A stretch of 64,000 nt of DNA from an uncultured Bacillota bacterium (GTDB lineage Bacteria > Bacillota > Clostridia > Christensenellales > UBA1242): positions 16,232 through 80,231 of the forward strand of contig CAMRTM010000003.1 in the NCBI GenBank assembly GCA_947053645.1. Reading direction: 5' to 3'. This document shows positions 2,180 to 56,125 of this stretch, piece by piece. Each line of letters begins with the position of its first letter. The stretch's first letter is position 1. The position numbers were made by a program, and so were the translations under genes. The notes below the pieces were generated by a model. The model worked only from the letters and a program-made list of their open reading frames with translations. It was not told the origin of the DNA and ran no database searches.

Positions 2180-2239
2180 AAATTTTTCTCCTTTATCTTC
2201 ATGGTAATTATACCACATCTTCACAATTTTGACAATCAA

Positions 2240-37698: not shown

Positions 37699-37712
37699 TA
37701 ACTTACACTTGT

Positions 37713-37795
37713 GCGGATATGGCGTGGCGGGGTTCCACGAAAACATAAATGTTTTTGGGGTGCATAGTGGCAGACGCGTTGGATTTAAATCCAGC
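37713..37795 (+). pseudogene. tRNA-Leu(UAA)-like 5' half with a 42-nt hairpin insertion; no T arm or 3' acceptor
   Basis: First 12 nt GCGGATATGGCG are identical to the downstream tRNA-Leu. A 42-nt insert follows (37725-37766, self-complementary CCACGAAAACAT/ATGTTTTTGGGG). Then GTGGCAGACGCG and an anticodon arm TTGGA-TTTAAAT-CCAGC. The downstream sequence has no T arm. Confidence 0.6.
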
Positions 37796-37841
37796 GCTAG
37801 AAAAGACAATCAACTAAAGAAAAAATGATTTAAACAAATAT

Positions 37842-37923
37842 GCGGATATGGCGGAATGGCAGACGCGCTGGATTTAGGTTCCAGTCCGAAAGGGTGCAGG
37901 TTCAAGTCCTGTTATCCGCACCA
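37842..37923 (+). tRNA. tRNA-Leu (anticodon TAG), CCA encoded
   Basis: GCGGATA acceptor / TATCCGC-A-CCA, anticodon arm CTGGA-TTTAGGT-TCCAG, long variable arm, T arm GCAGG-TTCAAGT-CCTGT. Confidence 0.9.
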
Positions 37924-38191: not shown

Positions 38192-38253
38192 ATTAGCACC
38201 AATTAGCACAGATTAGCAAAAGTTAGAATGCACGAGAATTTCTGGGAATTATA
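38192..38253 (+). promoter_or_regulatory. 62-bp leader with four phased 10-bp repeats (copy A, upstream of the fiber operon)
   Basis: ATTAGCAcc aATTAGCAca gATTAGCAaa aGTTAGAAtg + cacgagaatttctgggaattata. 58/62 identical to the reverse complement of 55172-55233. Confidence 0.75.
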
Positions 38254-38314
38254 CTTGAAAGTGAGGAGGTAAAATTATTAAGAAAAACAAAAGTCGAGTA
38301 TAAAGGAGAAAGTT

Positions 38315-38956
38315 ATGGATAGCGAGTTTGTGCTAAGTTTAAAGGAGATTTCTTTAGAAATTGTTGTAATTGCTTTATTGGTGTTTGGACTCACAATGCT
38401 AATCAAATGGCCAATTAAAAAACTGACAGCAAAGTATGATGAGAACAAAAGAAAAGCTATAAACACAGTGATAGTATTTATCCCAATGTTCCTTTCATTG
38501 TTATTTAATGCATTATATTTCGGAATCTTTAAATCCCAATGGTTTTCAACACAGGCTTTTGATAGTATGGTAAGTTCATATGTTCTTGCAGTTGCAATTT
38601 ATGCTGTGTATACAAGAATTGTAATACTTATCAAGGGTGCAAAAGGACAAAGTGTAGAATCAGACCTAAGCAAAGAGACAATTTCATACATAAAGAAAAA
38701 TGTCAAAACATTATCTAAGACACTAAAATTAGATGAACAAGAACTTAACAAAATAGTTTCAAAAGTTGAGAGTCTAGTTAAACTTAGAGATGAAATTACA
38801 AGCAATGTTATATTGCAAGATATTCCAGAGACAGAAAACCTGGAAAGACAAATCAAAGAGTTGAACACTCAAAAAAATGATATCTTGGACAAGATATCCA
38901 AAAATCAATCTGAATTAGAAAAATTACAAAAATCAATTAAAAAGGAGAAAAATTAA
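38315..38956 (+). CDS. Three-TM membrane protein with long charged coiled-coil tail (holin-like architecture)
   Basis: TM segments at about aa 14-31, 49-72 and 85-106, then ~100 aa of K/E-rich coiled coil. First gene after leader copy A. AAGGAG RBS. Confidence 0.45.
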   Translation: MDSEFVLSLKEISLEIVVIALLVFGLTMLIKWPIKKLTAKYDENKRKAINTVIVFIPMFLSLLFNALYFGIFKSQWFSTQAFDSMVSSYVLAVAIYAVYTRIVILIKGAKGQSVESDLSKETISYIKKNVKTLSKTLKLDEQELNKIVSKVESLVKLRDEITSNVILQDIPETENLERQIKELNTQKNDILDKISKNQSELEKLQKSIKKEKN

Positions 38957-38958
38957 CT

Positions 38959-39402
38959 ATGTATCAGAGACAAGAATTTAAGGATAGAGAAGCAAAAAAT
39001 CCAAACAAAAGGAGAATTATAGTACTTGAACAAAATGCTAATGAAATCATTGCAAACATTGAACCAGTGGCAGAAGAGATTACTGAAGAAGGCACACCAT
39101 TTAATGCTGACCTTATGGAGAAATTTCAAGAATCAATTATTCAAAGTGAAACCGACTCGTCAGAAGCTCTTAGAATCGCAAGAGAGGCTAAATCACAATC
39201 ACAAGAATCATACGACCACGTGGTTTCAGTTCAAGGAACAAAAGTTACAAAAAATGGAGCTTTCGTTGCGAATTTTAATGCAGATGAAAAAGTCGACCAA
39301 ACTGATTTTGAAGCAATTGTGCGAAGAGTAGCCGCTTTGGAAAATAGTCCTATTATGACAAAAATAAAGTATGATTCAGAATCAGATACTTTTACTATTT
39401 AA
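38959..39402 (+). CDS. XkdV-like tail-fiber N-terminal domain protein (stub)
   Basis: MYQRQEFKDREAKNPNKRRI..EEITEEGTPFNADLMEKFQESI follows the Y-x-R..F-x-D..P-N-R..GTP..A..M pattern of Firmicute prophage tail-fiber N-termini. Only 147 aa. Confidence 0.5.
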   Translation: MYQRQEFKDREAKNPNKRRIIVLEQNANEIIANIEPVAEEITEEGTPFNADLMEKFQESIIQSETDSSEALRIAREAKSQSQESYDHVVSVQGTKVTKNGAFVANFNADEKVDQTDFEAIVRRVAALENSPIMTKIKYDSESDTFTI

Positions 39403-39434
39403 GTTGTTGCTTACATTGACAAAAAGGAGGAATT

Positions 39435-39965
39435 ATGCCAGATATTAGTTGTGAAGGAAAAATTGAAGCAAGAAGTTTGTTTGTCGATGGCTCAGAAATA
39501 TTTCCAGCAGGCATTGTTTTAGCATTTGGCGGAACTAGTATTCCAGCAGGGTATTTGCTTTGTGATGGAAGGGCAGTGTCAAGAACTCAATATGCTAGAT
39601 TGTTTAATGCAATTGGAACAAGTTATGGAGAAGGAGATGGACTCACATCCTTTAATCTACCAAACCTAATGGATAGGTTTATTCAGGGAAAAAATGAGAT
39701 TGTAAAGGATATTGAAGCAAAGTTACCAAACATTAAAGGTGGTAAGAAGTCGGGAAGCATTTTATATGGTGCAAATACTGAAATGCAGGGAGCGTTTCAG
39801 GGAAAATCTAATACAACAGTATATTCAAGTGTTGGCTCAGGCAGTGGTAAGATTTATTATAGTCCATTAGATTTTGATGCATCAAAGTCTAACCCAATTT
39901 ACAGCGACAATTGTAATACAGTTCAACCCCCAGCAGTTGGTATGAAATATATTATCAAATATTAG
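39435..39965 (+). CDS. Phage tail collar domain protein (fiber-tip-like 1)
   Basis: IVLAFGGTSIPAGYLLCDGRAVSRTQYARLFNAIGTSYGEGDGLTSFNLPNLMDRFIQG is a clear tail-collar motif. N-terminal adaptor motif MPDISCEGKIEA. LPNIKG motif. Confidence 0.75.
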   Translation: MPDISCEGKIEARSLFVDGSEIFPAGIVLAFGGTSIPAGYLLCDGRAVSRTQYARLFNAIGTSYGEGDGLTSFNLPNLMDRFIQGKNEIVKDIEAKLPNIKGGKKSGSILYGANTEMQGAFQGKSNTTVYSSVGSGSGKIYYSPLDFDASKSNPIYSDNCNTVQPPAVGMKYIIKY

Positions 39966-39978
39966 TTGGGAGATTCGT

Positions 39979-40453
39979 ATGAGAATTTTTAATGAAAATA
40001 AAACAAAAGAAATAAAAAAAAGAAGAAGTTGACTCTATAACAGAAAGATTAGTAGAAGATAAACTCTTTATACAACATCACGAAGTCATCCAGGAAATTC
40101 CAAAGCAATCTCATCTTAAGGTAGTTAAGGAATACGATAATGGCGGAAAAGATGTAATAGAAGTGGTTGATGTTGAATATGTGAAACCACAAGAAGCTTA
40201 TGATGAATATGAAGATATCTTAAGAGTAAAAACCTTAACAAAAGAAGAAATATTAAACAATCTTCGAATACTTAGGGAAGAACAGTGTTTTTCTATTGTC
40301 AACAGAGGATTAGTTTGGTATGCACAAATTGATAACAGCCAAAATTTAGAACTTACGCGATGGTATAAAGAATGGTTAGATATTACCGACTAATACACTG
40401 AAGGCGTGGATGTATTGACTATCATTCCAAATAAGCCAGAGTGGTTGAAGTAA
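39979..40453 (+). pseudogene. XkdW-like fiber accessory/chaperone-like gene with an A8 frameshift and an in-frame TAA
   Basis: ATG at 39979 (MRIFNENKTKEIKK) runs into an A8 tract (40014-40021), and the homologous frame continues in +1 (EEVDSITERLVEDKLFIQHHE..). TAA at 40391-40393 is followed in frame by YTEGVDVLTIIPNKPEWLK, which matches the C-terminus (VIPNKPTWLK) of the paralog at 42454-42804. Confidence 0.65.
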
Positions 40454-40462
40454 GGAGGTAAT

Positions 40463-40906
40463 ATGGGGAAATTTAATTGTGAAGGAGAAATCCAACTCTT
40501 TGGTATAAACATATTAGATAAAATCTATCCAATAGGTTCAGTTTATTTATCAGTAAGTCAAACAAGTCCTGCAAGTCTGTTTGGGGGGGGTACGTGGTCT
40601 CAGTTACCAGAGGGACACGCTGTATGGACAGCTTCAAGTGGTGCTGGCGAAACGATTTCAGCAGGTTTGCCAAATATAATCGGTAAAACAACTGATGTAA
40701 TTTTTTATAAAGATGTAATTAGAGGCGAAGGAGCCTTCGTTACTGGAGACACTGCTGCCTATTGGGATAGTAACAAAGGTGGAGATTATGTGGGAAGAAG
40801 AGTGTCGCTTTGGTTTGATGCTTCTTGCTATAACTCGATATATGGGGCATCATCAACAGTTCAACCACAAGCAATAAAAATTTATGCGTGGAAAAGAATT
40901 TCATAA
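40463..40906 (+). CDS. Fiber-tip-like protein 2
   Basis: N-terminal MGKFNCEGEIQ adaptor motif. IYPIGSVYLSVSQTSPASLFGGGTWSQL and LPNIIG motifs common in phage fiber tips. Contains a G8 tract at 40583-40590. Confidence 0.6.
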   Translation: MGKFNCEGEIQLFGINILDKIYPIGSVYLSVSQTSPASLFGGGTWSQLPEGHAVWTASSGAGETISAGLPNIIGKTTDVIFYKDVIRGEGAFVTGDTAAYWDSNKGGDYVGRRVSLWFDASCYNSIYGASSTVQPQAIKIYAWKRIS

Positions 40907-40919
40907 ATAGGAGGAAATT

Positions 40920-41456
40920 ATGGGCAATGCAAATATTGAAGGAAAATTAAAAGTCGATGGAAAATTAGAGGCTTTTGGTGTAATACCAATTGGTGGAGTT
41001 ATTCCATATTTTGGAACAAACACACCAAAAGGTTGGTTATTCTGTGATGGGAGTGTGTTTGATACTACTTTTTATCCAGAACTTTATTCCGTGTTAGGAA
41101 GTAATACCTTGCCAAAGATATCCGATAATAGATATTTGGAGGGGGCATCAATACCTAATGTACCACAAGATGCATCTATTCCTAACATTAAAGGGGAAGT
41201 TACTATTAAGGGAATTGATTCAAGTAGATTGTATATTGATCATACTGAAAACCAAATTGTTCAAGGAGCTAATAACGCACTTAGTGGTGGTAATAGTGCA
41301 TGTTGTATGCGTGTGGCAAGTTACAAAGAAAATACTGCATATAAGCAACATAAAACATTAGTCTTTGATGCAAACAAATACAACAATGTTTATAACGATA
41401 CTAATATTTTAAGACCTAAGTCAGTAACGGTTAGATATTTGATAAGGGCAAAGTAG
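40920..41456 (+). CDS. Phage tail collar domain protein (fiber-tip-like 3)
   Basis: MGNANIEGKLK adaptor motif. IPIGGVIPYFGTNTPKGWLFCDGSVFDTTFYPELYSVLG collar motif. IPNIKG. Confidence 0.7.
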   Translation: MGNANIEGKLKVDGKLEAFGVIPIGGVIPYFGTNTPKGWLFCDGSVFDTTFYPELYSVLGSNTLPKISDNRYLEGASIPNVPQDASIPNIKGEVTIKGIDSSRLYIDHTENQIVQGANNALSGGNSACCMRVASYKENTAYKQHKTLVFDANKYNNVYNDTNILRPKSVTVRYLIRAK

Positions 41457-41465
41457 GAGGAATTT

Positions 41466-41786
41466 ATGGTAAGTGAGAATGAACTTGTATCTCTTATTGA
41501 TAAGGATAATGTAATTTACAATGTTTTAAAAGCAGAAAGATTAAATTATCCAGATAGAGAAGCAACACTTGAAGAAATTGAGTGTAGAAAACAAGAGGAA
41601 CAAAAGGAAAAACAAATTGGAATACTTAAACAAAGGCTAAGAGACTATAGTGATGATATAGTTCAAGATATGGCAGGAGAAATCGTTCCAGATATTGAAA
41701 AAAGAAAACTTGAATTTATGAGAACCCACGATTTGTTAAGAGCCTTATTAAATATGCCTATTAGGGATAAGAAAGGAGAAATATAA
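41466..41786 (+). CDS. Small acidic accessory protein (chaperone-like)
   Basis: 106 aa, charged and coiled. Sits directly after a fiber-tip gene, in the same position as the XkdW-like genes. Confidence 0.35.
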   Translation: MVSENELVSLIDKDNVIYNVLKAERLNYPDREATLEEIECRKQEEQKEKQIGILKQRLRDYSDDIVQDMAGEIVPDIEKRKLEFMRTHDLLRALLNMPIRDKKGEI

Positions 41787-42457
41787 TGGCAAAAGCAAAT
41801 ATAGAAGGAAATGTTAAAGCTGAAAGTTTGGAAGTCTCAGGTAAAATTCAAGCGAAGACTTTGGATTTGGAGGGTGCGTTTACCGCACTTAAGAGTATTG
41901 GTGGGGGATTTTCAATATCCGACCCAGTAAATGTGGGATTAGAGTTGGGTAGAAGAGATGGAACACCAGGCACTCCATATATTGACTTCCATACAGATGG
42001 ACAAGCAAATACAGATTATAATGCAAGAATTATTGCACATAGCAATTATTTAGATATAGCATCTGCTGGAGGTTTAAAGATTAATGGAAATTCCGTAGAT
42101 GCTCTAATGATGGCTATGATGGGAAATAATTGGTCTGCATTTTCGACCTATGGAAAAGTTACTAAACTTGTAGACGGGAATATTGCATCTGGTAATATAG
42201 GAATTGGTGCGCCACTTTTGAACTATGATATTATTTTCGTTTGCGGAACAGAGGATAATAACAATGGAACTACTTGGACTTGTATACCTGTTTGGCAACT
42301 TAGTGAGGCTTTAACACAAAATCCAAATGGCAATACAGCTTTGTGGTTTAATTCTCAGGCTTTTTGGTATGTAAAAAACTCATCATTTAATACAACAACA
42401 CTAACAGTCTTTTCAGAATGTGCAAAAATATATAAAATAATAGGAGTGAAACTATGA
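41786..42457 (+). CDS. Fiber-tip-like protein 4 (paralog of 42814-43452)
   Basis: MAKANIEGNVKAESLEVSG..GTPGTPYIDFHTDG..TDYN.R. The first ~85 aa are nearly the same as the paralog; the C-terminal ~135 aa are unrelated. Confidence 0.6.
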   Translation: MAKANIEGNVKAESLEVSGKIQAKTLDLEGAFTALKSIGGGFSISDPVNVGLELGRRDGTPGTPYIDFHTDGQANTDYNARIIAHSNYLDIASAGGLKINGNSVDALMMAMMGNNWSAFSTYGKVTKLVDGNIASGNIGIGAPLLNYDIIFVCGTEDNNNGTTWTCIPVWQLSEALTQNPNGNTALWFNSQAFWYVKNSSFNTTTLTVFSECAKIYKIIGVKL

Positions 42458-42804
42458 TTAAGTACGAATTAGATGAAAACAATTTCTTAACTGGGAATTT
42501 TGCTTATGTTGGACAATTTGAAAGATTTGTGGAATTAGATAAAGAACTTAACGAAGTAAATAAAAATTTGCAATGGAATGGCACAAACTTCATTTTGTCG
42601 ACAAATCCAAAAGAAGTAGAAAGAGAACTTCGTGTGTTAAGAGAAGAAAGAGAGAAAGAATGTTTTTCTTTCATAAACAGAGGACAAATGTGGTATGAAA
42701 CGCTAAGTTATGAACAAAAACAAGAACTAAGAAATTGGTATATTCAATGGCTTGATGTAACAGAAACAAAAGTAATTCCAAATAAACCAACATGGTTAAA
42801 ATAG
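42454..42804 (+). CDS. XkdW-like fiber accessory/chaperone-like protein (intact)
   Basis: ..LRVLREEREKECFSFINRGQMWYETLSYEQKQELRNWYIQWLDVTETKVIPNKPTWLK. Paralog of the disrupted gene at 39979-40453. Confidence 0.5.
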   Translation: MIKYELDENNFLTGNFAYVGQFERFVELDKELNEVNKNLQWNGTNFILSTNPKEVERELRVLREEREKECFSFINRGQMWYETLSYEQKQELRNWYIQWLDVTETKVIPNKPTWLK

Positions 42805-42813
42805 GGGGAGTAC

Positions 42814-43452
42814 ATGGCAAAAGCGAATATAGAAGGAAATGTTAAAGCTGAAAGTTTAGAAGTTTCAGGTAACATTAAAGGCAATACGTTAGATTTAGAA
42901 GGCTCTTTTACAGCTCTTAAAAATAAAGGTGGTGGTTTTTCTATCTCAGATCCAGTAAATGTTGGTATAGAACTTGGGAGAAAAGATGGAACACCAGGTA
43001 CTCCATATATTGATTTTCATACAGACGGAAAGCCAGAAACAGATTATAACTCAAGATTAATTGCTGTTGGAGATATGTTAAGCTTAAATTCTTCTGAACT
43101 TCGTCTTAATGGGCCAACAGCAAGATTTAGTATAAATGGTGTTCGTCTTGGAGATTATGGGATTGAAATATTATCTAAAGCAGAAAGGGATTTACCAGTA
43201 GGCACTAATATAAGTTTAACACAACCGATTACGAATTTTAGTGCATTGGCAATAGCAATTGAACGCGATAATGTTATTAATGATATAAAATACTATCCAG
43301 TTTCACTTATAAAAGCATATATGAATAATTATGCTTTTACATGTCAAGGTTATGGTAATACATCATGTAAGTTCAGATTTACTGATATACAGCATATAAA
43401 CTTTCAAGCACATTATTATACTGGCTGGTTTCGTATATTTGGAATTGTGTAA
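42814..43452 (+). CDS. Fiber-tip-like protein 5 (paralog of 41786-42457)
   Basis: Same N-terminal module MAKANIEGNVKAESLEVSG..GTPGTPYIDFHTDG.., with a different C-terminal domain. Confidence 0.6.
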   Translation: MAKANIEGNVKAESLEVSGNIKGNTLDLEGSFTALKNKGGGFSISDPVNVGIELGRKDGTPGTPYIDFHTDGKPETDYNSRLIAVGDMLSLNSSELRLNGPTARFSINGVRLGDYGIEILSKAERDLPVGTNISLTQPITNFSALAIAIERDNVINDIKYYPVSLIKAYMNNYAFTCQGYGNTSCKFRFTDIQHINFQAHYYTGWFRIFGIV

Positions 43453-43473: not shown

Positions 43474-43506
43474 AAAAAAAGATACTCATTTCTGAGTATC
43501 TTTTTT
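43474..43506. terminator. Bidirectional terminator at the convergence point of the two island operons
   Basis: aaaaaaa-gatactca-tttc-tgagtatc-tttttt. Confidence 0.75.
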
Positions 43507-44097
43507 ATGTTTCTCTTTTTTTGGAGGGTTGTAAGCATACCAAGATTTCATTATTTCGTTAACATCTAATGAGTTTTTGCATTTCGACTCTACCATATTA
43601 AAGCTAATAAATGTTAGTAATTTTCGAACTTGATTTTTTGTATAATGATTAATACACATTCTTTCTTTTTTGTTATTAACCAATGTGAATTCCAAATACT
43701 TTTTAGGCATAGAGGATGAAACCCACTTCAATTGTATTTTTTTATTTTTAGAGTTTTTTTCGCTCGCAATAATTGATATATTTTGAATATCAATATATTT
43801 AATTTTGCATTTATACTGAATTTTTTCAAATTTTGGAAGCATATCGCCAAAAGTATATATATCTTCTTTCCTTAGATGAATTTTAAAGCATAGTAAAAAC
43901 CTTATAGAAGTATAAAGGAGAAAAATTATTGCCAACACAAATATTACGTGTTCGTGTGGTTGCAAGTGTAATGAGGGGATTTCGACTCCACAAAGAGGTA
44001 AGATGGAGATTGTCAAGTACAGTATTGACAACCCCCAAAAGAAACAATTTAACAGTATAAAGCCAATAGAATGAGGGACAAAAACTCTTTTTTTCAT
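43486..44097 (-). CDS. Membrane protein, candidate immunity for orphan toxin 3
   Basis: Three N-terminal TM segments plus a PH-like soluble domain. Lies immediately downstream of orphan rhs-CT 3. Confidence 0.45.
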   Translation of the reverse strand: MKKRVFVPHSIGFILLNCFFWGLSILYLTISILPLCGVEIPSLHLQPHEHVIFVLAIIFLLYTSIRFLLCFKIHLRKEDIYTFGDMLPKFEKIQYKCKIKYIDIQNISIIASEKNSKNKKIQLKWVSSSMPKKYLEFTLVNNKKERMCINHYTKNQVRKLLTFISFNMVESKCKNSLDVNEIMKSWYAYNPPKKEKHKKDTQK

Positions 44098-44108
44098 TTA
44101 TACTCCTT

Positions 44109-45056
44109 TTATGTTAAAGCGGTTTTGAATATGTCAATGACTGATCCGTATAATGCCAAACCAAACATCTTTCCAAAGGTTTTCCAAGAGATATGCCTAA
44201 TTAAATCTCTTCTAAATTTTGTGTAAATCTGATCAGTTATTGCACTCCAACTTCCTCTACCATAGGTAATACCTTTAACTGAATATTTCGTATTTATTAT
44301 ACCAACGAATGCCATAGAAACAAAACCATTAATTGCGCCGTTTACTAAAGAACCAACGAGATTAAATTCCGTACCATAAATAGCATGATTAAAGGCATCA
44401 CTTAGGACGGTAGATACTAAGCCAGTTACGAAAGCAGAAATATAAGTACCTACTCCAGGGATGATGGAGAAAGCTCCACCTATAAATCCGCCAATAGTAC
44501 TGCCCAGGAAATCTCCCCAAGACCATTCCCATTTGCCAGTTACAATACCTTTAACTACAACTGATGCTGTATATGAGACTGCTCCTACAGCGGCACCAAT
44601 GGCGGCTGCAATTAGCAATCCAATAAGGAAGCTTAAGAAATAGCCGTTTTCATCAACACCATTTACAGGATTGTTTAAACAATATGCATAAAGGTTTAGT
44701 CCATTAATGGTAATTTTTGTTATGTCAAGTGTAGTAATATCATCTGCATTAATAAATCTGCCAAGTTCAGGATCGTAATACCTACTATTTAAGTAATAAA
44801 GATTAGTTTCAAAATCATAGTAGTAACTGCGATATCTAAATGGATTTTTAAAAGTAATAAACGCATTTATATTACTAATATCATTATACTTAAAATCATC
44901 ATCAATTGCAACAAAATCATAAGTTATCTTACCATCATTTGTGATTTTTTCACCCCAAAATTCCAGTTTCTGATTTCCCCAAGCATCATATGTATAACGA
45001 GATATTTGTTTACCAGTTGAATCATATATGCCAATTATATCATTTTGAGCATTTTC
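44109..45056 (-). CDS. Orphan rhs C-terminal cassette 3 (core-end fragment + Gly-zipper/hydrophobic toxin domain)
   Basis: I traced a continuous frame from 45056, directly after a TAA. It reads ..NDIIGIYDSTGKQISRYTYDAWGN..FKNPFRYRSYYYDFETNLYYLNSRYYDPELGRFINADD..LYAYCLNNPVNGVDENG, then a G/A/I-rich hydrophobic domain. There is no start codon until a TTG at 44618. Confidence 0.75.
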   Translation of the reverse strand, partial: ENAQNDIIGIYDSTGKQISRYTYDAWGNQKLEFWGEKITNDGKITYDFVAIDDDFKYNDISNINAFITFKNPFRYRSYYYDFETNLYYLNSRYYDPELGRFINADDITTLDITKITINGLNLYAYCLNNPVNGVDENGYFLSFLIGLLIAAAIGAAVGAVSYTASVVVKGIVTGKWEWSWGDFLGSTIGGFIGGAFSIIPGVGTYISAFVTGLVSTVLSDAFNHAIYGTEFNLVGSLVNGAINGFVSMAFVGIINTKYSVKGITYGRGSWSAITDQIYTKFRRDLIRHISWKTFGKMFGLALYGSVIDIFKTALT

Positions 45057-45167
45057 TTATACTAATCTTATGAACAGAAATAAAAATTAAAAGGATTAAT
45101 CATTTTTAGTTAGATGTATCAGAAATAAAAGTGATTTGCACAAAACTAATTTGTTTAATATAGATAT

Positions 45168-45201
45168 AAAAAAGATAGACTTATTTTAGCCTATCTTTTT
45201 T
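45168..45201. terminator. Hairpin terminator closing orphan cassette 2
   Basis: aaaaaagatag-acttattttagc-ctatctttttt. Confidence 0.6.
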
Positions 45202-45223
45202 ATACTCAATTTTATATTATTTG

Positions 45224-45658
45224 TTATGATAATTTTTTAATAACAGAGTATTCATCATAAATTGTTTTATCAAAGATAATCCCGCAATCAGTAAAACTAT
45301 TTTCAAAATAGATGAGAGCATTATATTTTTCAATGTCTTTGTTTGAATTTAGAATTATATTCTGATCAAAAATGTAAAATGATAAGTTTACAATATTATT
45401 GTAGAATTCATTTGATAGGATTAATTCCACATCATTTATACTTTTAAGAAGATAGAAATTTTCAAAATTTAAAAGGCTCTTATAGTTTCCAGGAATACAT
45501 TCACGAAAAAAGCCTGTGAATACAACTTTAGCACCTTTATTTGCAAAAGAGTATAAAATCTTCTTTGCTTCTTGTAATGAAAAATCTTCACCATCCGATA
45601 GCTTAATGAAATATTGTTTTTTTCTTCCGAGATAAAAATAGTTTTTCTTGATTTTCAT
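45224..45658 (-). CDS. Hypothetical cytoplasmic protein, candidate immunity (cassette 2, second gene)
   Basis: ATG at 45658 has AAGGAG upstream. No TM segments. Position within the cassette. Confidence 0.4.
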   Translation of the reverse strand: MKIKKNYFYLGRKKQYFIKLSDGEDFSLQEAKKILYSFANKGAKVVFTGFFRECIPGNYKSLLNFENFYLLKSINDVELILSNEFYNNIVNLSFYIFDQNIILNSNKDIEKYNALIYFENSFTDCGIIFDKTIYDEYSVIKKLS

Positions 45659-45751
45659 AATATCTCCTTTTATCTTGTACCTCCTATGAGTCCACCTATA
45701 ATAGCCCCAAGTTGTTAATAAGATAAATTTGAGCAAACTTTTTATTCTTGA

Positions 45752-46045
45752 TTAATTTTTATTTTCTTTTTCTATAATTACAAATGAAGAGTCTTTTGAA
45801 AGATGTCCAAAAGTATTAGGGGTTAATGGATCTAAATGAATAGAAAAATCGTTATCTAGTTTATTTTCTGAAATCGTTATCAGTAATTTTGCTAAAGATA
45901 ATAAATCTTTTTGTTCTCCATTTATAATAATATATTTTGATTTACTATCAAATTTAATCGATAGACCAGATAAGTCTATGTCTTTTAAGACAGATGATTT
46001 ATTAATTTCTTTGTCATCAAGTATATTGATTTCAATTTTTTTCAT
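45752..46045 (-). CDS. Small protein, candidate immunity for orphan toxin 2
   Basis: 97 aa. Starts 10 nt after the orphan 2 stop, with GGAGGA RBS. Confidence 0.45.
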   Translation of the reverse strand: MKKIEINILDDKEINKSSVLKDIDLSGLSIKFDSKSKYIIINGEQKDLLSLAKLLITISENKLDNDFSIHLDPLTPNTFGHLSKDSSFVIIEKENKN

Positions 46046-46054
46046 ATTATCCTC

Positions 46055-46957
46055 CTATTTAATTACTGACCACCATTTAAATAGTTTGTAAAACAAATGA
46101 TTATTTCCACCTGGCAATATATAGTTCCCCTTTGAACCTATTGGGAAAGCCCAGCTTTCTAGATTAAAGTGAGGTCCATATTTTCCATGACCTTTATAAT
46201 CCCATCTTAACTGTCGCATACCATCTTTAGAAATCCATCTCTTATTTCCAACTTTGTTATATCCTTTTCCTAAAAACTTTTGCCCCTGCTTTGCTGCCTT
46301 AAATTGACCTGTGGAGTGGTAAACTCCTAAAATCATACTTCCAACAGCAGCAACACCTTCGGTAATTCCACTAAACCAATTGTAAGCAGTTTCGTTGCCT
46401 TGGAATATGCCATCGCGTATAAAGTTATAGTTTGTACCTGCTTCGATTAATGTCGCGATTCCATCAACTGCAGTTAAAACGCCTGCCACCAATGTTACCC
46501 CAGCGACAATCCCCATTAATAACGGAATTCCTGCTCCAAATGTTGTGACAGCTAATACGATAGCAGTTACTGCTGTGAAGATTTTTCCAATTGCCTTCCA
46601 GAACTTTTTCCAGCTCCAATTTCCAGTAGTGTCTGAATCATTTACAGGGTTATTAAAACAGTAAGCATAAAGATTTAATCCATTAAGTTCATCCATTGTT
46701 TCTGTTAAAATAGAAACATCATCTGCATTAATGAATCTACCAATTTCAGGATCGTAATATCTACTATTTAAGTAATATAAATTGGTTTCAAAGTCATAAT
46801 AGTAACTACGATATCTGAATGGATTTTTGAAAGCAATGAAAGCATTGATTTCACTAATATCATTATACTTAAAAGCATCATGGAATACAACATATTCTTC
46901 GATAATTTCTCCATTTTCTTTGATGTTTTTGCCCAAATATTCAGTTTTTACATTTCC
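46055..46957 (-). CDS. Orphan rhs C-terminal cassette 2 (core-end fragment + TM segment + C-terminal toxin-like domain)
   Basis: Frame opens at 46957, right after a TAG. GNVKTEYLGKNIKENGEIIEEYVVFHDAFKYNDISEINAFIAFKNPFRYRSYYYDFETNLYYLNSRYYDPEIGRFINADD..NNPVNDSDTTG, then hydrophobic helices and ..RWDYKGHGKYGPHFNLE... The track start is a TTG at 46936. Confidence 0.75.
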   Translation of the reverse strand, partial: GNVKTEYLGKNIKENGEIIEEYVVFHDAFKYNDISEINAFIAFKNPFRYRSYYYDFETNLYYLNSRYYDPEIGRFINADDVSILTETMDELNGLNLYAYCFNNPVNDSDTTGNWSWKKFWKAIGKIFTAVTAIVLAVTTFGAGIPLLMGIVAGVTLVAGVLTAVDGIATLIEAGTNYNFIRDGIFQGNETAYNWFSGITEGVAAVGSMILGVYHSTGQFKAAKQGQKFLGKGYNKVGNKRWISKDGMRQLRWDYKGHGKYGPHFNLESWAFPIGSKGNYILPGGNNHLFYKLFKWWSVIK

Positions 46958-46958
46958 C
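46821..46958 (-). repeat. Recombination-grade homology block shared with the main rhs gene
   Basis: Hand alignment: 137 of 138 nt identical to 49914-50051. Homology continues with more mismatches down to about 46700. Confidence 0.85.
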
Positions 46959-47010
46959 TAATTTAATATAATTTGGATTAAAAGGAAAAGATTGAAAAGT
47001 TTTTAGGTAA

Positions 47011-47043
47011 TAAAAAACATTGGCATAACCACCAATGTTTTTT
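47011..47043. terminator. Hairpin terminator closing orphan cassette 1
   Basis: aaaaaacattgg-cataacca-ccaatgtttttt. Confidence 0.75.
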
Positions 47044-47100
47044 ACGACATTAAAATAGGAGTAAGTTGTAAACTCAAGTTTATTATTGAAATCTGATTTT

Positions 47101-47490
47101 TTAGAATGTGTCAATTATTGTTTTTTTAGATGTAAAAACCTTTACATTAGGTTTACCTTCCCACTTATCTTTATTAAAAGATTTCTTATCAACAAATTTG
47201 AAAGGTCTTTTAAGGGGAGTTATTCTCTTGTATTGAATGACAATCATATTTCTTAATGTCTCTATTATAAAATTAAGAATATCTTGATCTTCTATTCCAT
47301 AGTAAAAGATTGAATTTATATATACATTAAAGAGCCCATTATTTTTATCAAAACAAATTTCCATTCTAAAATCTTCATGGAATATTATTTTAATTATGTT
47401 GTGAATAATTGAAACTTTTGACTTTAATTCATTTTCGGTTGATAATTGATTGTACAAATCAGTTATTGTCTCTACAAATCCATTTTTCAT
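47101..47490 (-). CDS. Hypothetical cytoplasmic protein, candidate immunity for orphan toxin 1
   Basis: 129 aa, immediately downstream of orphan 1. No recognisable motif. Confidence 0.4.
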   Translation of the reverse strand: MKNGFVETITDLYNQLSTENELKSKVSIIHNIIKIIFHEDFRMEICFDKNNGLFNVYINSIFYYGIEDQDILNFIIETLRNMIVIQYKRITPLKRPFKFVDKKSFNKDKWEGKPNVKVFTSKKTIIDTF

Positions 47491-47534
47491 AGCATTTTCT
47501 CCTATAATTTGTTTTATTTATTTTTAATCAAGCT

Positions 47535-48566
47535 TTATTTATTTCTAATAAAATATGATCCTAAAACTGCACTGGTGTTCCAAAGTCCTGTTAGGAAACC
47601 GGTTCTAGCAATTGTGATAGCGGCACGTGTTAGCCCCATATGTATGTGAAGTCCATGTGCCAAACTAGCCTCAAGTCTAAAGAACCCATTTCCACTGCCA
47701 AATCGAGCAAAAGTGAAACTGCCAGATTTTGAACCAAACATAAAGGCGGCTTTACTATTTTTAAGATTTGGAATGACTCTTTGTGCCCAGTTGGTTTTTC
47801 CAAGCAAGCCCAAGGCCTTCCCAGCTGCACCAAAGATGGCTCCAGAAATTGCTCCAGTGGCAGCACCAATCAATGCCTCAGTCCCAACTTTCTTCCAGTC
47901 AATGTTTTCATAACCAACAGTAAGACCTTGAGAGATTATGTTGACACCTGCACCTATTACAAGTCCCGTTAACGCACCTGTTACAGCACCTCCAACAGCT
48001 CCACCAAATATAGTCGCCGCAATGCCTCCGCCTAGTGCACCTCCAATTGCTGATGCTATACCAGCCGTAGCAACTGTTATTGCAACTACGGCGACAATAG
48101 TTACGACCGCTACTACAACTGTTATTAGCCACTTTAGCCATTTTGGTAGATCTCCATTATCATCAGATGTGTTAATTGGATTATTGAAGCAGTAACAGTA
48201 AAGGTTAAGCCCATTTATTACATCTTTTGTGGTATCAAGATTGCTAATATCATCTGCATTAATGAATCTGCAAATTTCAGGGTCGTAATATCTACTATTT
48301 AAGTAATATAAATTGGTTTCAAAGTCATAATAGTAACTACGATATCTAAATGGATTTTTAAAAGTAATAAATGCATTTAGATTACTAATATCATTATACT
48401 TAAAATCATCATCGATTGCAACAAAATCATAAATTGTTTTACCATCATTTGTGGTTTTTTCGCCCCAATATTCCAGTTTCTGATTTCCCCATGCATCATA
48501 TGTATAACGAGATATTTGTTTACCAGTTGAATCATATATGCCAATTATATCATTTTGAGCATTTTT
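47535..48566 (-). CDS. Orphan rhs C-terminal cassette 1 (core-end fragment + Gly/Ala-rich hydrophobic toxin domain)
   Basis: I traced the frame codon by codon. It is open from 48566 (after a TAA) to 47535 and has no ATG/GTG/TTG until the TTG at 47873. Reads ..NDIIGIYDSTGKQISRYTYDAWGN..RYYDPEICRFINADD..NNPINTSDDNGDLPKW, then a TM and Gly-zipper region. Confidence 0.75.
   Translation of the reverse strand, partial: KNAQNDIIGIYDSTGKQISRYTYDAWGNQKLEYWGEKTTNDGKTIYDFVAIDDDFKYNDISNLNAFITFKNPFRYRSYYYDFETNLYYLNSRYYDPEICRFINADDISNLDTTKDVINGLNLYCYCFNNPINTSDDNGDLPKWLKWLITVVVAVVTIVAVVAITVATAGIASAIGGALGGGIAATIFGGAVGGAVTGALTGLVIGAGVNIISQGLTVGYENIDWKKVGTEALIGAATGAISGAIFGAAGKALGLLGKTNWAQRVIPNLKNSKAAFMFGSKSGSFTFARFGSGNGFFRLEASLAHGLHIHMGLTRAAITIARTGFLTGLWNTSAVLGSYFIRNK
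48331..48566 (-). repeat. Homology block shared by orphan cassettes 1 and 3
   Basis: Aligned by hand with 44821-45056 (offset 3510): 12 mismatches in 236 nt. Weaker similarity continues for ~70 more nt. Confidence 0.8.
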
Positions 48567-48621
48567 TTATAACAATCTGCTGTAGGTGGTTTTTATATAT
48601 TTTGTAAATATAATTAATATT

Positions 48622-48650
48622 AAAAAGCAAGGGGGATACCCTTGCTTTTT
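48622..48650. terminator. Hairpin terminator after the main rhs-immunity pair
   Basis: aaaaagcaaggg-ggata-cccttgcttttt. Confidence 0.8.
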
Positions 48651-48674
48651 AGGTTCGCTGTGAAGTGAATTGTT

Positions 48675-49049
48675 TTATTGATGGCTTATTTTAATTAATA
48701 TTAACTGAGTGATTACAACATAGAGAATTTCTAATCCTAGAATTGAAAGAGTCACAATAAATGCAATTTCTAAGGAGTTTTGTAATAAACAAAGTAATAA
48801 AATATCAGTGATTAAAGTTAACAAGGAAAGTAAATATCCCATTATTTGCATAATGTATAGCGGTATTGCCAAGCCTTCTGAAACGGGTATACCGTCAGGT
48901 GCTCTGAATAAGAACCTGAATTTTTTAATTTTTTTGCACCTAAAAGCGCCGTTATTAACTCCTGACTTAAATTGAGAGAATACTGGTAAAGCTGCTATAA
49001 AGAATATAAACAACGTTATACATATTCCCATTATTATTTTATCACCCAT
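48675..49049 (-). CDS. Multi-TM small membrane protein, candidate cognate immunity of the main RHS toxin
   Basis: 124 aa with 3-4 TM segments. Starts 14 nt after the rhs stop, with GGAGG RBS. Confidence 0.55.
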   Translation of the reverse strand: MGDKIIMGICITLFIFFIAALPVFSQFKSGVNNGAFRCKKIKKFRFLFRAPDGIPVSEGLAIPLYIMQIMGYLLSLLTLITDILLLCLLQNSLEIAFIVTLSILGLEILYVVITQLILIKISHQ

Positions 49050-49063
49050 ATGTTACCTCCTAT

Positions 49064-52000
49064 CTATTTAATATTAAATTTATTTAATGCCCAATTTATA
49101 ATATTGTTAAGAAAAGTAAAACTGCCATATGTTATCATTGCCCCAGTAAACATTTTAAACATTTGTTGTCCCACAGCCGCTGTCATTTTATTGGTAACTT
49201 GCGTTAGTGCTGATTTCATCCCTTGTGCTGTGGCGTAATAAGTTCCTGAGGCTATTCTATTCTGAACAGCTTTTAAGCTCATTGCGGCCTTTTGGACATT
49301 ATGTGCAGAACCAACAGCTTTTGCGTTTTGTGTTCCTGCACCAGCAATCAGACCTGAGACTCCGCCAACAACCACACTAATTCCGAAACTTATCCAATTT
49401 ATTTCGCTTAGTGACGCTCCACCTATTAATTGTGAGGCAAAGTTAGAAATACCACCAATACCTGCACCAATTAGCATTGAACCTATTTTGGAAATCCCAG
49501 ATACACCAAGTAATCCAGTTATTGCTCCGACTCCAATATCTAAAGCAAATTGTCCCCAGTTTAATTCTCCGTTAAAGATGGCTTGTGAGCCTAATGATAC
49601 TCCTGCACCAATCGCTGCCCCTACAAATGCCGCTCCAACTAGGCCACCAGTAAATATAGAGCCAACGACTAGCCCTACGACAATAAATCCTGCCAGTAAC
49701 CATTCCCACCATTTTGTTGTTCCAAATGGGTCAGTAAAATATATTGGATTATTCCCACAGTATGCATAAAGATTTAAACCGTTGAGTGACTCGGCATCAA
49801 GATTACTAATGTCGTCAGCATTAATGAATCTGCAAATTTCAGGGTCGTAATATCTACTATTTAAGTAGTAAAGATTGGTTTCAAAGTCATAATAATAACC
49901 ACGATACCTGAAAGGATTTTTGAAAGCAATGAAAGCATTGATTTCACTAATATCATTATACTTAAAAGCATCATGGAATACAACATATTCTTCGATAATT
50001 TCTCCATTTTCTTTGATGTTTTTGGCCAAATATTCAGTTTTTACATTTCCCCAGGCGTCATAGGTGTAGCGAACAATTTGTTTTCCATTAGAATCGTAAA
50101 TCCCAATAATATCATTTTGCAAATTCTTCTTATAGAAGAAATCAGCATCTACAATATTGTTTTTCAAATGGAAACCAGTTATGTCATCAGCTCCGTAGTA
50201 GAATGTAAGGTCATTACAGCAGTCGTGTTGTTTAATAATTTTTTCACCATTAAGGAAGAATTGAGTAGTAAAAGGTTTTTCACAAAGACAATCTTCTGTG
50301 CATTCACAATTAGCACCATTAAACTTGAATCGAGGATGGTCAGTATAAATGGTTTTACTTGTTCTAATTCCGTTTGCATTGTATTTGTAGTCAACTAATT
50401 GACCAATAATTTTATTGTTTTCATCTTTAAGTACATCAAATGCATCAAGTTGTCTGCCATTAGACCAATCGAGTTTCAAGTCTTTATATCTTGTTGGATT
50501 TCCAAGTTCATCATACTCAAACTTTCTACCATTTAACATGATAAGTTGATCTCGCCAGCCAGAAGTAGGGTATGAGTAAACAAAAGGAGTGGATTCAATT
50601 GTATCTAAATTGCCTGTTAATGTAAAAGGATATTCCAATCGTTGAGTGATATTATCGCCAGCATCATATGAGTAAACAGAAGTTTTTCCTATTTTCTTAT
50701 TATCTTCACGAATGATGCGGGATAGTCCATCATATTGATAACGTGCGATCAATTCATTATTTATTCTGACCTCAGTGATATTACCTTTACTATCATATGA
50801 ATAATGCATATTTTCGTTGGCTTCGCTTTTACTTGAAAACTTGATATTAGAAATAAGATTTGATGAGTGGTCGCCAGATTTCAAATAATTATATTCTTTA
50901 TTTATATTACCACTTTCAATTTGTTTCACTCTGCCAAGCTTATCATATTTGATAATTTGTTCAATTTCATTAGGAAGCAGAACTCCTTTAAGTTTGGGTT
51001 TAACTTCGTTTGAATAATTGTAGTTATAGAAAAGCTCCTCATCTTCAATAGTTATAGTGCTGTTTTCTACATTTGAATGTTCATCATCATAACAATTTTC
51101 AACTAGAACCTTTTTACCGTGCTGTTTTGTTTCTTCTTTGTAAGTATTACCAAATTTATCAATAAAAATTTTACTGATTTTTTCTTCAGCAGTTCCATCT
51201 TGGTTATAGATAAGTTCTTTTACAAACACTAAGTTTCCATAAGTATCGTAAATGTTTTGAGAAACTAGCCTTTCAGCAGGGCTTGGATCCTCATCAGTTG
51301 GTTTAGGAGTAAAATATGTTTCAACAACATTCCCATCATCATTGAGTGTTTGTCTAAATGTTTCTTGATTTGCAAATTTTGTGATTTCATTTTTGATAGT
51401 TTTATTACTAGATGTTGTATCATCTTCAATTGGTTCATCAATATACTCTTTGACAAGATATTCATTGTTTGCGATTGAGATTCTGGAAATATCTCCATCA
51501 GAATTATAGTCATAATCAACTGAGAAATCATTGTGTTTAAGGCTAGTTAATGTATCAAGATAATAGCCATACGTATTTGTATTTTCAATTCCATTAATTG
51601 TTGATGAAATCTCAAGTAGATTGTTGTCTGGGGTATAGCCGTAACTAATTTTAGTGCCATCTTCATATGTCTTTGACGTTATTATACCAGTACCTTCAAT
51701 GTACTCAAGCTTTGCTCCATCAAAGCCTAACTCGTTAAGCTCTTTTGTAGATTTACCTTTTTCATCTAGGCAACTTTCTTGATAGAATTTAGAAGAAGGC
51801 TCATCCTTGTTATAGGTTATAGATTTTACAACTAATCCTTGTTCATTATAAGTATTTTCATTGACAATACCATCGCAATTTGTTGTTCTAATTAAGCTGC
51901 CTTGTTTATTGTATTCATAAACTATCTCAAGTGGTTCTGCTCCCGACTTGTTAATTTCCGATTTCTTGTAAATCAATTCCTTCGAGATTCTTGTAGAGTC

Positions 52001-55132: not shown

Positions 55133-55171
55133 TTTCTTATTCTCCTTTTAATTTTTTAGTTACAATTCAAT

Positions 55172-55233
55172 TATAATTCCCAGAAATTCTCATGCATTCT
55201 AACTTTTGCTAATCCTTGCTAATTCGTGCTAAT
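55172..55233 (-). promoter_or_regulatory. 62-bp leader with four phased 10-bp repeats (copy B, upstream of the rhs gene)
   Basis: Reverse complement reads attagcacgaattagcaaggattagcaaaagttagaatgcatgagaatttctgggaattata. Ends 39 nt before the rhs ATG and overlaps the last codons of the sigma-like gene. Confidence 0.75.
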
Positions 55234-55605
55234 ATTGGGTTGCATTTTAGATGTTATCAATATTAGTTGGTTTAATGCATCGCTATGTAACTGATAAATT
55301 CGCTTTGTTGAGAAGTGAATTTTATCAGCGATTTGGTCAAATGTAAAAAAGCTTATATATCTCATATATAGAATAGTTCTATAAGGTTGTTGAAGTTTTT
55401 GTATTAAACTTTCAATATATTTCTTCCTTTCTAGAATTTTCTTAATTTCTAATTTTTCAGTTTCTTTTGTATCAATTAAAAATGCAGAATCGTGTTGATT
55501 CATAGTGAGTTTATTGAATAATTCAACCTCTTTAAACTTTTCGGTTAAGTATTGATTATCAAACCAGTAACTCTCAAAGAGTTCTTTCAACTTTTCCCTT
55601 GTCAT
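55219..55605 (-). CDS. Small sigma-70 region-4-like protein / phage late-activator-like regulator
   Basis: C-terminal ..YRTILYMRYISFFTFDQIADKIHFSTKRIYQLHSDALNQL is a region-4-type HTH, as in small phage sigma/RinA/ArpU-like activators. ATG at 55605 has GGAGGTGG upstream. Confidence 0.55.
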   Translation of the reverse strand: MTREKLKELFESYWFDNQYLTEKFKEVELFNKLTMNQHDSAFLIDTKETEKLEIKKILERKKYIESLIQKLQQPYRTILYMRYISFFTFDQIADKIHFSTKRIYQLHSDALNQLILITSKMQPNISTN

Positions 55606-55780: not shown

Positions 55781-56125
55781 ATGTTTAAACATAAACTAAG
55801 AGACCTTAGGAGAGAAAGAAAACTTACTCAAGATGCTCTAGCAAAGCTTTTGAATGTTGGCAAAACAACAATATGCTTTCTAGAAACGGGAGTTCGTGAA
55901 CCAAGTGTTGAAATGTTATTTAAAGTAGCGAAAGTGTTTGGAGTTACTACTGATTGGCTTATGGAAGATGACTCCATAACAATAAAAGAAAGACCACAAG
56001 TAAATACGGTTACTATAATTGGTAGGGGTGGAACATACACAACAATTCAATTGAAAGATGATGAAATTAACGAATTGAAGAAAATTGCGCAAGAAATGTA
56101 TGACAATGATAAAAAAGACAAATAA
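55781..56125 (+). CDS. XRE-family repressor-like HTH protein
   Basis: LRDLRRERKLTQDALAKLLNVGKTTICFLETGVREPSVEMLFKVAKVFGVTTDWL is a canonical HTH_3 domain. Confidence 0.8.
   Translation: MFKHKLRDLRRERKLTQDALAKLLNVGKTTICFLETGVREPSVEMLFKVAKVFGVTTDWLMEDDSITIKERPQVNTVTIIGRGGTYTTIQLKDDEINELKKIAQEMYDNDKKDK

Follow-up and report, generated by a model that had tools for sequence, protein, structure and literature searches.

A phage-type tail-fibre array linked to an RHS toxin in gut Clostridia: a candidate fibre-targeted bacteriocin module

Results

Gene content of the locus

We analyzed a 64-kb stretch of DNA from an uncultured Bacillota bacterium (contig CAMRTM010000003.1; "the window" hereafter denotes this whole stretch), in which a row of phage-type tail-fibre genes converges with a gene for a large RHS/YD-repeat toxin. 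The fibre row occupies positions 38315-43452 of the + strand and is tightly packed, with genes for a membrane protein of 213 amino acids (aa), here called TM213, for a fibre shaft and for five fibre tips, and with small genes between them. An earlier note on this DNA, made from the sequence alone, had described this row, and each open reading frame (ORF) that it listed lies where it had been placed, on the + strand. The row and the hairpin that closes it comprise:

38315-38956, + strand: TM213, 213 aa, with three transmembrane (TM) helices and a helical C-terminus of ~100 aa
38959-39402, + strand: fibre shaft, 147 aa, with an N-terminal anchor domain, a coiled coil and the C-terminal joint motif PIMTKIKYDSESDTFTI
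39435-39965, + strand: tip 1, 176 aa, with a Phage Tail Collar domain (Pfam 1.1e-21; phrog_9116 1.1e-23)
39979-40450, + strand: disrupted gene for a 157-aa chaperone-like protein, with a frameshift in an A-run at ~40015-40025 and a premature stop at 40391-40393
40463-40906, + strand: tip 2, 147 aa, with a T4 Gp10_C-like domain (Pfam 1e-10)
40920-41456, + strand: tip 3, 178 aa, with a Collar domain (Pfam 3.2e-10)
41466-41786, + strand: small acidic protein, 106 aa
41786-42457, + strand: tip 4, 223 aa, with ~90 N-terminal residues that include GTPGTPYIDFHTDG and a C-terminal domain of its own
42454-42804, + strand: 116-aa chaperone-like protein of the 157-aa family, partner of tip 4, a pairing repeated in the related locus L036
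42814-43452, + strand: tip 5, 212 aa, with ~90 N-terminal residues as in tip 4 and a different C-terminus
43475-43506: hairpin with a 14-bp stem and A/T-run flanks, exactly between the convergent fibre and toxin rows

The two collar domains (tips 1 and 3) had been recognized in the earlier note. PHROG tail or tail-fibre families match four of the five tips, and residues 29-107 of tip 4 resemble a Gordonia phage minor tail protein (E 2e-4); the T4 gp10-like domain, represented here by tip 2, is one used for branching tailspikes. The motif (L/I)PNI(K/I)G, previously read in three tips, is present as LPNIKG, LPNIIG and IPNIKG at residues 97, 69 and 87, respectively. Tips 4 and 5 do share an N-terminus and then part, with 71 of 90 N-terminal residues identical against 29 of the following 108, and the DNA beneath their common part is a 251-nucleotide (nt) repeat of 81% identity.

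The toxin gene lies on the - strand, in an operon separate from that of the fibres, and is the sole ORF above 766 aa in the window. It is accompanied by a small membrane protein gene and by three orphan cassettes:

49064-55132, - strand: RHS toxin, 2022 aa (Pfam PF05593 8.6e-18; TIGR03696 6.7e-19 at residues 1737-1804, the core motif), laid out as jelly-roll (1-124), shell start (125-285), coiled-coil/poly-Gly insert (286-590), RHS shell, core (1737-1804) and C-terminal toxin
48675-49049, - strand: 124-aa membrane protein, directly downstream of RHS
47101-48453, - strand: orphan cassette 1 (core-homologous segment 48154-48453; toxin fragment 47535-47873; 129-aa gene 47101-47490)
45224-46936, - strand: orphan cassette 2 (RHS C-terminal fragment of 293 aa, 46055-46936; Imm32-like gene 45752-46045; 170-aa gene 45224-45736)
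43486-44943, - strand: orphan cassette 3 (RHS-core-homologous segment 44644-44943; glycine-zipper toxin fragment 44109-44618; TM immunity-like gene 43486-44097)

The toxin thus shows the features of the RHS/YD class (repeats, core motif, variable C-terminal toxin, downstream immunity-like genes and orphan cassettes), and a Pfam scan of the protein returned RHS_repeat alone and no SpvB. Glycine-zipper membrane helices abound in its C-terminal toxin, which follows the core motif, and the adjoining 124-aa membrane protein is, from its position, presumed to be the immunity protein. A 300-nt segment of the RHS core end occurs four times within 43486-50015 (starts at 44644, 46623, 48154 and 49716) and precedes each of the three orphan cassettes. 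Since the RHS gene is followed by three such toxin/immunity cassettes, tips and toxins alike are kept as libraries. The hairpin between the two rows appears terminator-like in both directions, and a similar sequence lies at 45169-45203; it was the one useful hairpin from sigma-70 promoter and terminator scans of the window, whose counts were no higher than in shuffled sequence.

Conserved linkage of fibre and toxin genes

Related loci were collected in a one-genome-per-species scan for TM213 (n=27); all come from metagenome-assembled genomes of uncultured gut Clostridia, whose labels include Christensenella, Catabacter, Ca. Caccovivens and Ca. Onthoplasma and whose hosts include human, mouse, chicken, rabbit and goat. 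A homologous RHS protein of ~2000 aa is encoded within ~10 kb of TM213 and the fibre genes in ~20 of the 23 loci with enough flanking sequence, and the homology extends to the RHS N-terminal region. Co-occurrence of fibre array and rhs, on which the earlier note had made its reading depend, is thus the rule. The TM213 and shaft genes are always adjacent, and DUF1492 and XRE genes usually stand beside RHS. A reciprocal metagenome scan started from the RHS N-terminus gave one long locus (L039), which consists of ImmA, XRE, activator, RHS, shaft, chaperone and TM213 genes.

The linkage is kept in different surroundings. The loci have different flanks (among them SpoIVA, tyrosyl-tRNA synthetase, CNNM and HD proteins) and follow at least three gene orders, namely the convergent one of the window, RHS downstream in a co-directional run, and RHS upstream (L033, L035). 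RHS shares one co-directional run with the fibre genes in L010 and L024, and both L010 and L011 consist of a single run of TM, stub, fibre, chaperone, RHS and immunity genes.

No capsid, terminase, tube, sheath, tape-measure or baseplate gene was found in the 64-kb window, and none of these nor an endolysin in ~25 related loci. The view of the earlier note that the window lacks virion genes and that the tips are detached from any particle agrees with this survey and with the absence of viral relatives of TM213 and the shaft (below). The rest of the window is chromosome near the origin and carries housekeeping genes (dnaA, dnaN, recF, Spo0A, SpoIIE, alr, FTHFS, ABC transporters); the presence of dnaN, dnaA and recF at 1082-4979 indicates that the window adjoins the chromosomal replication origin.

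Comparison of the window with its nearest loci shows where the module varies. TM213 is the most conserved component, with 86-95% identity in its TM part (residues 1-110) and 80-91% in its C-terminal half; in more distant loci it is 39-60% identical to the window copy. The shaft anchor is 83-86% identical, compared with 45-50% for the C-terminal part of the shaft and 40-81% for its coil and C-terminal parts overall. Likewise, the RHS N-terminal domain and shell reach 75-83% (the shell 77% against orthologues), compared with 26% for the C-terminal toxin. The toxin/immunity pair of orphan cassette 3 forms the end of the main RHS in L018 and L032. Polymorphism is therefore found at both ends, a pattern that fits a machine whose core is fixed while its two ends diversify.

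Three of the loci depart from this arrangement. TM213 stands alone in L028 and L034, and in L030 (1534-5383) a TM213 of 181 aa is followed by a shaft, a 177-aa gene, a 389-aa gene, an activator and an XRE gene, with no RHS. The gene after XRE in L030 starts like the flavodoxin/4Fe-4S gene of the window (57874-58617) and has a similar length (the two were not aligned), which hints at a possible ancestral insertion site. The TM213 of L034 is a 280-aa variant beside an ABC transporter and lacks the promoter element described below. One genome, Christensenella sp. MGBC128010, holds three TM213 loci (L031, L034 and L035).

A promoter element shared by both operons

The sequences upstream of the two operons and the genes next to RHS comprise the following features:

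38192-38255, + strand: promoter-like element of the fibre operon, with three ATTAGCA repeats at 10-11 bp spacing, GTTAGAATGCACGAGAA and TATACT
38256-38314, + strand: conserved 5' leader; besides the true ribosome-binding site it contains a GGAGG box ~45 nt farther upstream, followed by an AGTCGA box
55170-55233, - strand: promoter-like element, second copy, ~40 nt ahead of the RHS start codon and overlapping the 3' end of the activator gene
55219-55605, - strand: DUF1492/sigma-70 region 4 protein, ~128 aa from an ATG at 55605, of the late-activator (Ltr) type
55781-56125, + strand: XRE-type helix-turn-helix repressor-like gene, divergent from the activator and in the same position in L001, L002, L009, L025, L039 and L041
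56085-56558, + strand: ImmA/IrrE-type metallopeptidase gene with a HEIGH motif, also in L001, L025, L039 and L041

The element common to both operons is composed of three ATTAGCA repeats, GTTAGAAnGCATTAGAA and then TATAAT, with no canonical -35 hexamer at the usual distance. Across loci, it takes the form of two or three ATTAGCA repeats (10-11 bp spacing), (A)AAGTTAGAAnGCATTAGAA, ~10 nt and a TATAAT-like box. In all 64 kb of the window, its 30-nt core pattern matches exactly twice, before TM213 and before RHS, where 0.00 matches are expected. Alignment of upstream regions shows the element to be kept upstream of TM213 in >25 loci, and it precedes both TM213 and RHS in eight further loci (L001, L002, L009, L025, L031, L033, L035 and L039), bearing out the co-regulation of tips and toxin proposed in the earlier note. 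Additional copies occur in L037, which has three, and in L035, which has four; the extra two of L035 precede two further fibre operons, one encoding a shaft of 199 aa with proteins of 178 and 386 aa and the other proteins of 177 and 408 aa, with glycine-rich ends. The fibre-operon leader is kept across divergent loci (the equivalent region in >25 of them) and might stabilize the mRNA or be regulatory. The RHS leader differs from it (AATTGTAA..AAAAGGAG).

The gene immediately upstream of RHS encodes the DUF1492 protein (PF07374 6.5e-07, 29.9 bits with a cut-off of 21.5; PF04545 1.5e-06). Four protein families, DUF1492 among them, have been found by experiment to act through a cognate promoter as activators of phage late operons (PMC3753634). 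Because proteins of this family are known late-operon activators, we infer that the neighboring DUF1492 protein drives both promoters. The activator would in turn be controlled by the XRE/ImmA pair, in which the metallopeptidase is presumed to act as anti-repressor. A divergent gene for a LexA-like repressor lies upstream of the single co-directional run in L010 and L011, and such a repressor may act there directly. The XRE/ImmA pair is adjoined by a gene for a 321-aa PIN_12-domain protein (56641-57606), which gave no match as a tblastn query in the related loci and does not stand beside XRE in the loci examined.

A modular joint between shaft and tips

The N-terminal motif that the earlier note had seen on the five tips is shared by all five and extends well beyond them: the start M-[AGS]-[NKT]-[IFLAV]-[KN]-[CIV]-x-G is common to 28 tip genes in 15 loci and is a family feature rather than a product of chance.

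The gene after TM213 always opens with the anchor motif F(K/Q)DR..PNRRKI.I..Q.A.EIIADIE..EGTP.NA, in proteins that span 82 to 631 aa. The shaft family is rare (nine proteins among 5.8 billion searched). Its long forms, homologues of the shaft that the earlier note had called XkdV-like, are complete fibres; of the six above 300 aa that were scanned, five match tail-fibre or tail PHROGs, and those of L014, L016, L021 and L036 are each followed by one 110-125-aa gene. The short and medium shafts, including the 147-aa shaft of the window, are composed of the anchor, a coiled coil whose length varies, a QGTKV..G..V..FDADTKADK box and the C-terminal motif P(I)ITKI.YD..T.TF.F. Other shafts end differently and pair with other downstream N-termini, the end ..LLKANTIDLV with MAVIFDNKY/MGTLKIKG and the end ..GNIYLS with MAVLDKFYIKV. 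Three types of joint are thus found in which shaft end and tip start co-vary, which constitutes the best available evidence for a non-covalent shaft-tip joint.

The cassettes themselves move. The C-terminus of tip 4 and its 116-aa partner recur in L036, there terminating a 571-aa fibre; tip C-termini travel with the small gene downstream of them, cassettes switch between fused and split fibres, and tips are gained, lost and swapped between loci. Orthologues of tip 2 are present in L001, L002, L005 and L013, and tip 3 is 68% identical to L001_4435. The proposal that the tips are interchangeable accordingly gains from three sides, the motif in 15 loci, the matching shaft C-termini and the reuse of the tip 4 C-terminus.

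The small genes after the tips had been described as XkdW-like and chaperone-like. The first description fails, as no convincing Pfam family and no XkdW was found for the three small proteins of the window (E <= 0.1) or for ten members of the 116/157-aa family (E <= 1), and the family profile matched nothing among PDB sequences (E <= 10). The chaperone-like pairing stands for the 116-aa protein and tip 4, and the 76-aa ORF (40163-40393) is a fragment of the broken 157-aa gene rather than a gene. Residues 16-157 of that gene are 70-79% identical to intact genes in L001 and L002, and the gene is likewise intact in L013; the 19 codons past the premature stop are still conserved, so that the damage is either recent or a sequencing error. 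The 106-aa protein is probably an orphaned chaperone, because its orthologue in L001 and L006 comes after a 208-aa tip that is absent from the window. One broken and one probably orphaned chaperone gene, together with the movement of cassettes between fused and split fibres, suggest that the array is a mosaic in flux.

TM213 and the toxin N-terminus

In the AlphaFold2 model, TM213 has helices at 14-38, 43-72 and 79-107 and further helices over 118-212. From the lysine-rich first loop and C-terminus, we predict an N-out/C-in topology with a cytoplasmic C-terminus. The protein fits the format of small holins (1-4 TM helices and a charged cytoplasmic C-terminus) and appears to share the N-out/C-in three-helix topology of class I holins. 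The earlier description of TM213 as holin-like is therefore sustained in its three-TM topology; a match to a holin family was not found. Searches against Pfam, PHROG and NCBIfam gave noise alone, and the best Foldseek match of the AlphaFold2 model among viral models had E = 0.25. TM213 has 146 relatives, which a full HMMER profile search widens to 196, including shorter 3-TM proteins; ten distant 3-TM relatives (140-190 aa) are unannotated, with no family match and no phage match.

Phage sequences were searched as 50,697 phage records by tblastn and by pattern-seeded alignment scans of IMG/VR, the latter for TM213 and the shaft. Neither TM213 nor the 147-aa shaft, nor a 307-aa shaft, had a tblastn match in the phage records, and no relatives of TM213 or of the shaft alignment were found in IMG/VR.

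The RHS N-terminus is modelled as a beta-sandwich, with a predicted local distance difference test (pLDDT) score of 70-87 at residues 1-120 of the AlphaFold2 monomer and low values beyond. Foldseek weakly matched the model to generic jelly-roll and carbohydrate-binding-module (CBM)-like folds, comparison with PDB sequences gave poly-Gly noise only, and a homologue search gave four fragments. Reading of the sequences revealed no signal-peptide-like hydrophobic N-terminus in RHS, shaft or tips, and no LXG/WXG-type helical start in RHS. The RHS N-termini MKNVTINS, MKKVTIDS and MNNFKLNA loosely resemble the tip start motif, and one might speculate that RHS docks on the shaft end as a tip does. The insert at residues 286-590 (window 53400-54270) is 36% identical between the window and L001, against ~80% for both flanks; it contains GGGGFGGSSGGGGGGGGVGG, encoded by CCACC-type repeats at 53865-53939.

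The left border of the array

Just to the left of the fibre operon is a tRNA-Leu gene:

37842-37923: tRNA-Leu(TAG)

A repeat of its 5' end lies 129 bp upstream (37705-37724), where 37712-37800 resembles a degenerate second tRNA-Leu-like gene. We considered a mobile island and rejected it: the tRNA-Leu 3' end has no second copy in the window, and neither an integrase nor an att-like repeat was found there.

Discussion

A proposed fibre-targeted toxin

These data point, with somewhat better than even probability in our judgment, to a domesticated phage-derived module that makes a fibre-targeted RHS bacteriocin, with the tips as its variable target-binding end. The evidence favors a role of the tips with the RHS toxin over one with a particle whose genes lie elsewhere. 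The module would consist of two units, the first comprising the ~2000-aa RHS toxin, its immunity gene and the spare toxin cassettes, and the second TM213 with the modular tail fibre (shaft, tips and chaperones), both under the same activator-type promoter. A stress signal would lift the repressor, acting through XRE and the ImmA-like protease or, in some loci, through the LexA-like protein, and the DUF1492 activator would then turn on both units. The shaft would trimerize and its C-terminal motif join the N-terminal motif of one of the alternative tips. The shaft anchor, of a kind that would normally fit a phage baseplate, would attach the fibre to RHS, possibly at the N-terminal jelly-roll (1-124); alternatively, it may dock first on the cytoplasmic helical hairpin of TM213. 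Acting in a holin-like manner, TM213 would open the membrane and let the signal-peptide-less proteins leave the cell, whereupon the tips would bind surface receptors of competitors and bring the RHS cage and its toxin to them. Five tips combined with four toxin ends would provide a two-level repertoire. The immunity-like genes and orphan cassettes point to interbacterial antagonism, so that the target would be bacterial.

The product of such a module may, more tentatively, be a new antibacterial particle, an RHS cage mounted on a multi-tip fibre with no tail, tube or capsid, exported through TM213 and switched by a late activator; we consider this form of the proposal plausible, at slightly less than even probability.

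Several observations weigh against a fibre-targeted RHS bacteriocin. The assembly of fibre and RHS is deduced from sequence, and the model of the RHS N-terminus, through which it may occur, is moderately confident and matched generic jelly-roll/CBM-like folds alone. Pfam, PHROG, NCBIfam, phage tblastn and viral Foldseek searches all failed to relate TM213 to a holin family. Endolysin is encoded in no locus examined, which leaves exit through the Gram-positive wall without explanation, and there is no TcA-like channel through which the RHS cage could pass its toxin into a Gram-positive target. TM213 occurs without a nearby RHS in L028, L030 and L034, and its relatives are known solely from metagenome-assembled genomes. 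Finally, the negative result for virion genes covers the window and the related loci rather than complete genomes, elsewhere in which a fibre-less tailocin or prophage may lie.

Alternative explanations

This last point bears directly on an alternative in which the fibres are ordinary spares for a phage or tailocin whose genes lie elsewhere in the genome, the island being the late end of a degraded prophage with RHS as cargo and the pairing of fibres and toxin a consequence of common late regulation. All parts are indeed of phage type (Collar and Gp10_C tips, XRE/ImmA switch, DUF1492 late activator), the shaft anchor is of a kind that normally fits a baseplate, a tRNA-Leu gene marks the left edge, and the gene survey spans the window and loci, with complete genomes outside it. 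We nevertheless regard this explanation as unlikely, since the same minimal set is found with RHS and without other virion genes in ~20 loci with differing flanks and orders, RHS shares a co-directional run with the fibre genes in L010 and L024, shaft and TM213 have no relatives in IMG/VR or the 50,697 phage records at the sensitivity used, and neither integrase nor att repeat was found.

We give no more credence, and hence little, to a scheme in which the products are co-expressed with separate functions, TM213 serving lysis or release, the fibres acting as free lectin-like adhesins, bacteriocins or binders of the cell's own wall, and RHS targeting itself, for example through its jelly-roll. 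Co-regulation is seen directly, whereas assembly is deduced; moreover, the RHS N-terminus weakly resembles carbohydrate-binding jelly-rolls, the extra fibre operons of L035 stand alone under the same promoter, and L030 presents a fibre operon without RHS. However, the anchor is 83-86% identical against 40-81% for the coil and C-terminal parts, a conservation without purpose if the fibre were free, the TM213 and shaft genes are neighbors in every case, and the shortening of the L030 TM213 to 181 aa suggests decay rather than an independent role.

That the locus is a decaying prophage remnant without present function is very improbable: although the array includes a broken chaperone-like gene and a small gene apparently left without its partner tip, and although the ImmA-like ORF is shorter than in L001, intact ORFs, promoter and 5' leader are maintained in loci with TM213 proteins only 39-60% identical to that of the window, and constant parts of 75-95% identity with varying ends are a signature of selection.

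Relation to known systems

Functionally, the closest counterparts of the proposed RHS bacteriocin are the Tc toxins. Both have an RHS cage (TcB-TcC in Tc toxins) with a variable C-terminal toxin and a separate receptor-binding component, and both lack signal peptides. In contrast, the window holds no TcA-like pentameric channel, no SpvB match and no endolysin, and the targeting part here is of the trimeric phage-fibre type (Collar, Gp10_C). The absence of TcA and SpvB sets the locus apart from the Tc family in spite of this functional likeness. Tc toxins target insects, whereas the presence of immunity genes makes bacteria the likely target here. For one Tc toxin, YenTc of Yersinia entomophaga, release has been attributed to a phage-derived holin/endolysin cassette (a type 10 secretion system, T10SS) that operates in a subpopulation (PMC10847048).

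A repertoire at two levels is known from the Streptomyces umbrella toxins (UmbA/B/C), secreted particles in which a polymorphic toxin carries several exchangeable binders, with two-tiered bet hedging in lectins and toxin domains (PMC11062931, PMC13274773). The five tips and four toxin ends of the window may be analogous, but the proteins are unrelated, with ALF-repeat UmbC, UmbB and lectin/trypsin-like UmbA on one side and RHS and phage fibres on the other. General Pfam scans of the island, without a test aimed at them, turned up no UmbC ALF-repeat, UmbB or UmbA lectin domain.

R- and F-type tailocins and phages with multiple receptor-binding proteins have a stress-induced phage-type switch, exchangeable tips with cognate chaperones and joints between fibre segments. 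The window resembles them in its phage-type switch, exchangeable tips, chaperone-like genes, segment joints and T4 gp10-like domain. It differs in that sheath, tube, tape measure, baseplate and capsid are missing from the window and the related loci, and the killing agent here would be RHS.

A chromosomal toxin locus built from phage parts has a precedent in the pathogenicity locus (PaLoc) of C. difficile (TcdR, TcdE, TcdL), in which a phage-like holin is needed to release a large signal-peptide-less toxin and no complete phage is present (PMC12485765, PMC11344133). Both loci include a dedicated regulator of the sigma/activator type. The PaLoc toxins, however, are glucosylating rather than RHS proteins, no fibre genes accompany them, and TM213 is unlike known holin families.

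Other export routes are established for RHS toxins. Among them is that of WapA, a Sec-exported RHS toxin of Bacillota. The Rhs proteins associated with type VIIb secretion (T7SSb) also resemble the toxin of the window in their large RHS/YD shell, polymorphic C-terminal toxin, immunity gene and orphan cassettes (PMC10327511). Unlike the proteins that take the Sec and T7SSb routes, the RHS of the window lacks their N-terminal signals, the window has no EssC-like gene, and its RHS is linked to phage fibre genes.

No description of a module of RHS, tail fibre and membrane protein was found in the literature; tail-fibre repeats were reported by Zhang et al. 2012 only as internal stalks of toxins. 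The RHS-linked phage-derived module therefore appears to be undescribed, and the five-tip array of the window appears to be an expanded instance of it.

Implications

If the proposed RHS bacteriocin is confirmed, it would constitute a new route of RHS delivery and targeting in Gram-positive bacteria, beyond type VI secretion (T6SS), T7SSb, Sec with wall attachment and Tc complexes, and the first such route for strictly anaerobic gut Clostridia. It would also bring combinatorial tip-by-toxin diversity to RHS toxins and make TM213 the founder of a new holin-like family. To our knowledge, essentially nothing is known of the mechanisms by which Christensenella/Catabacter-type gut taxa compete. Five tips and four toxin ends predict targeting at the strain level, the defined promoter and activator offer a handle for induction, and the conserved shaft-tip joint could serve to retarget a protein toxin. 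More generally, the locus would exemplify a phage reduced to its switch, late activator, fibre and membrane protein.

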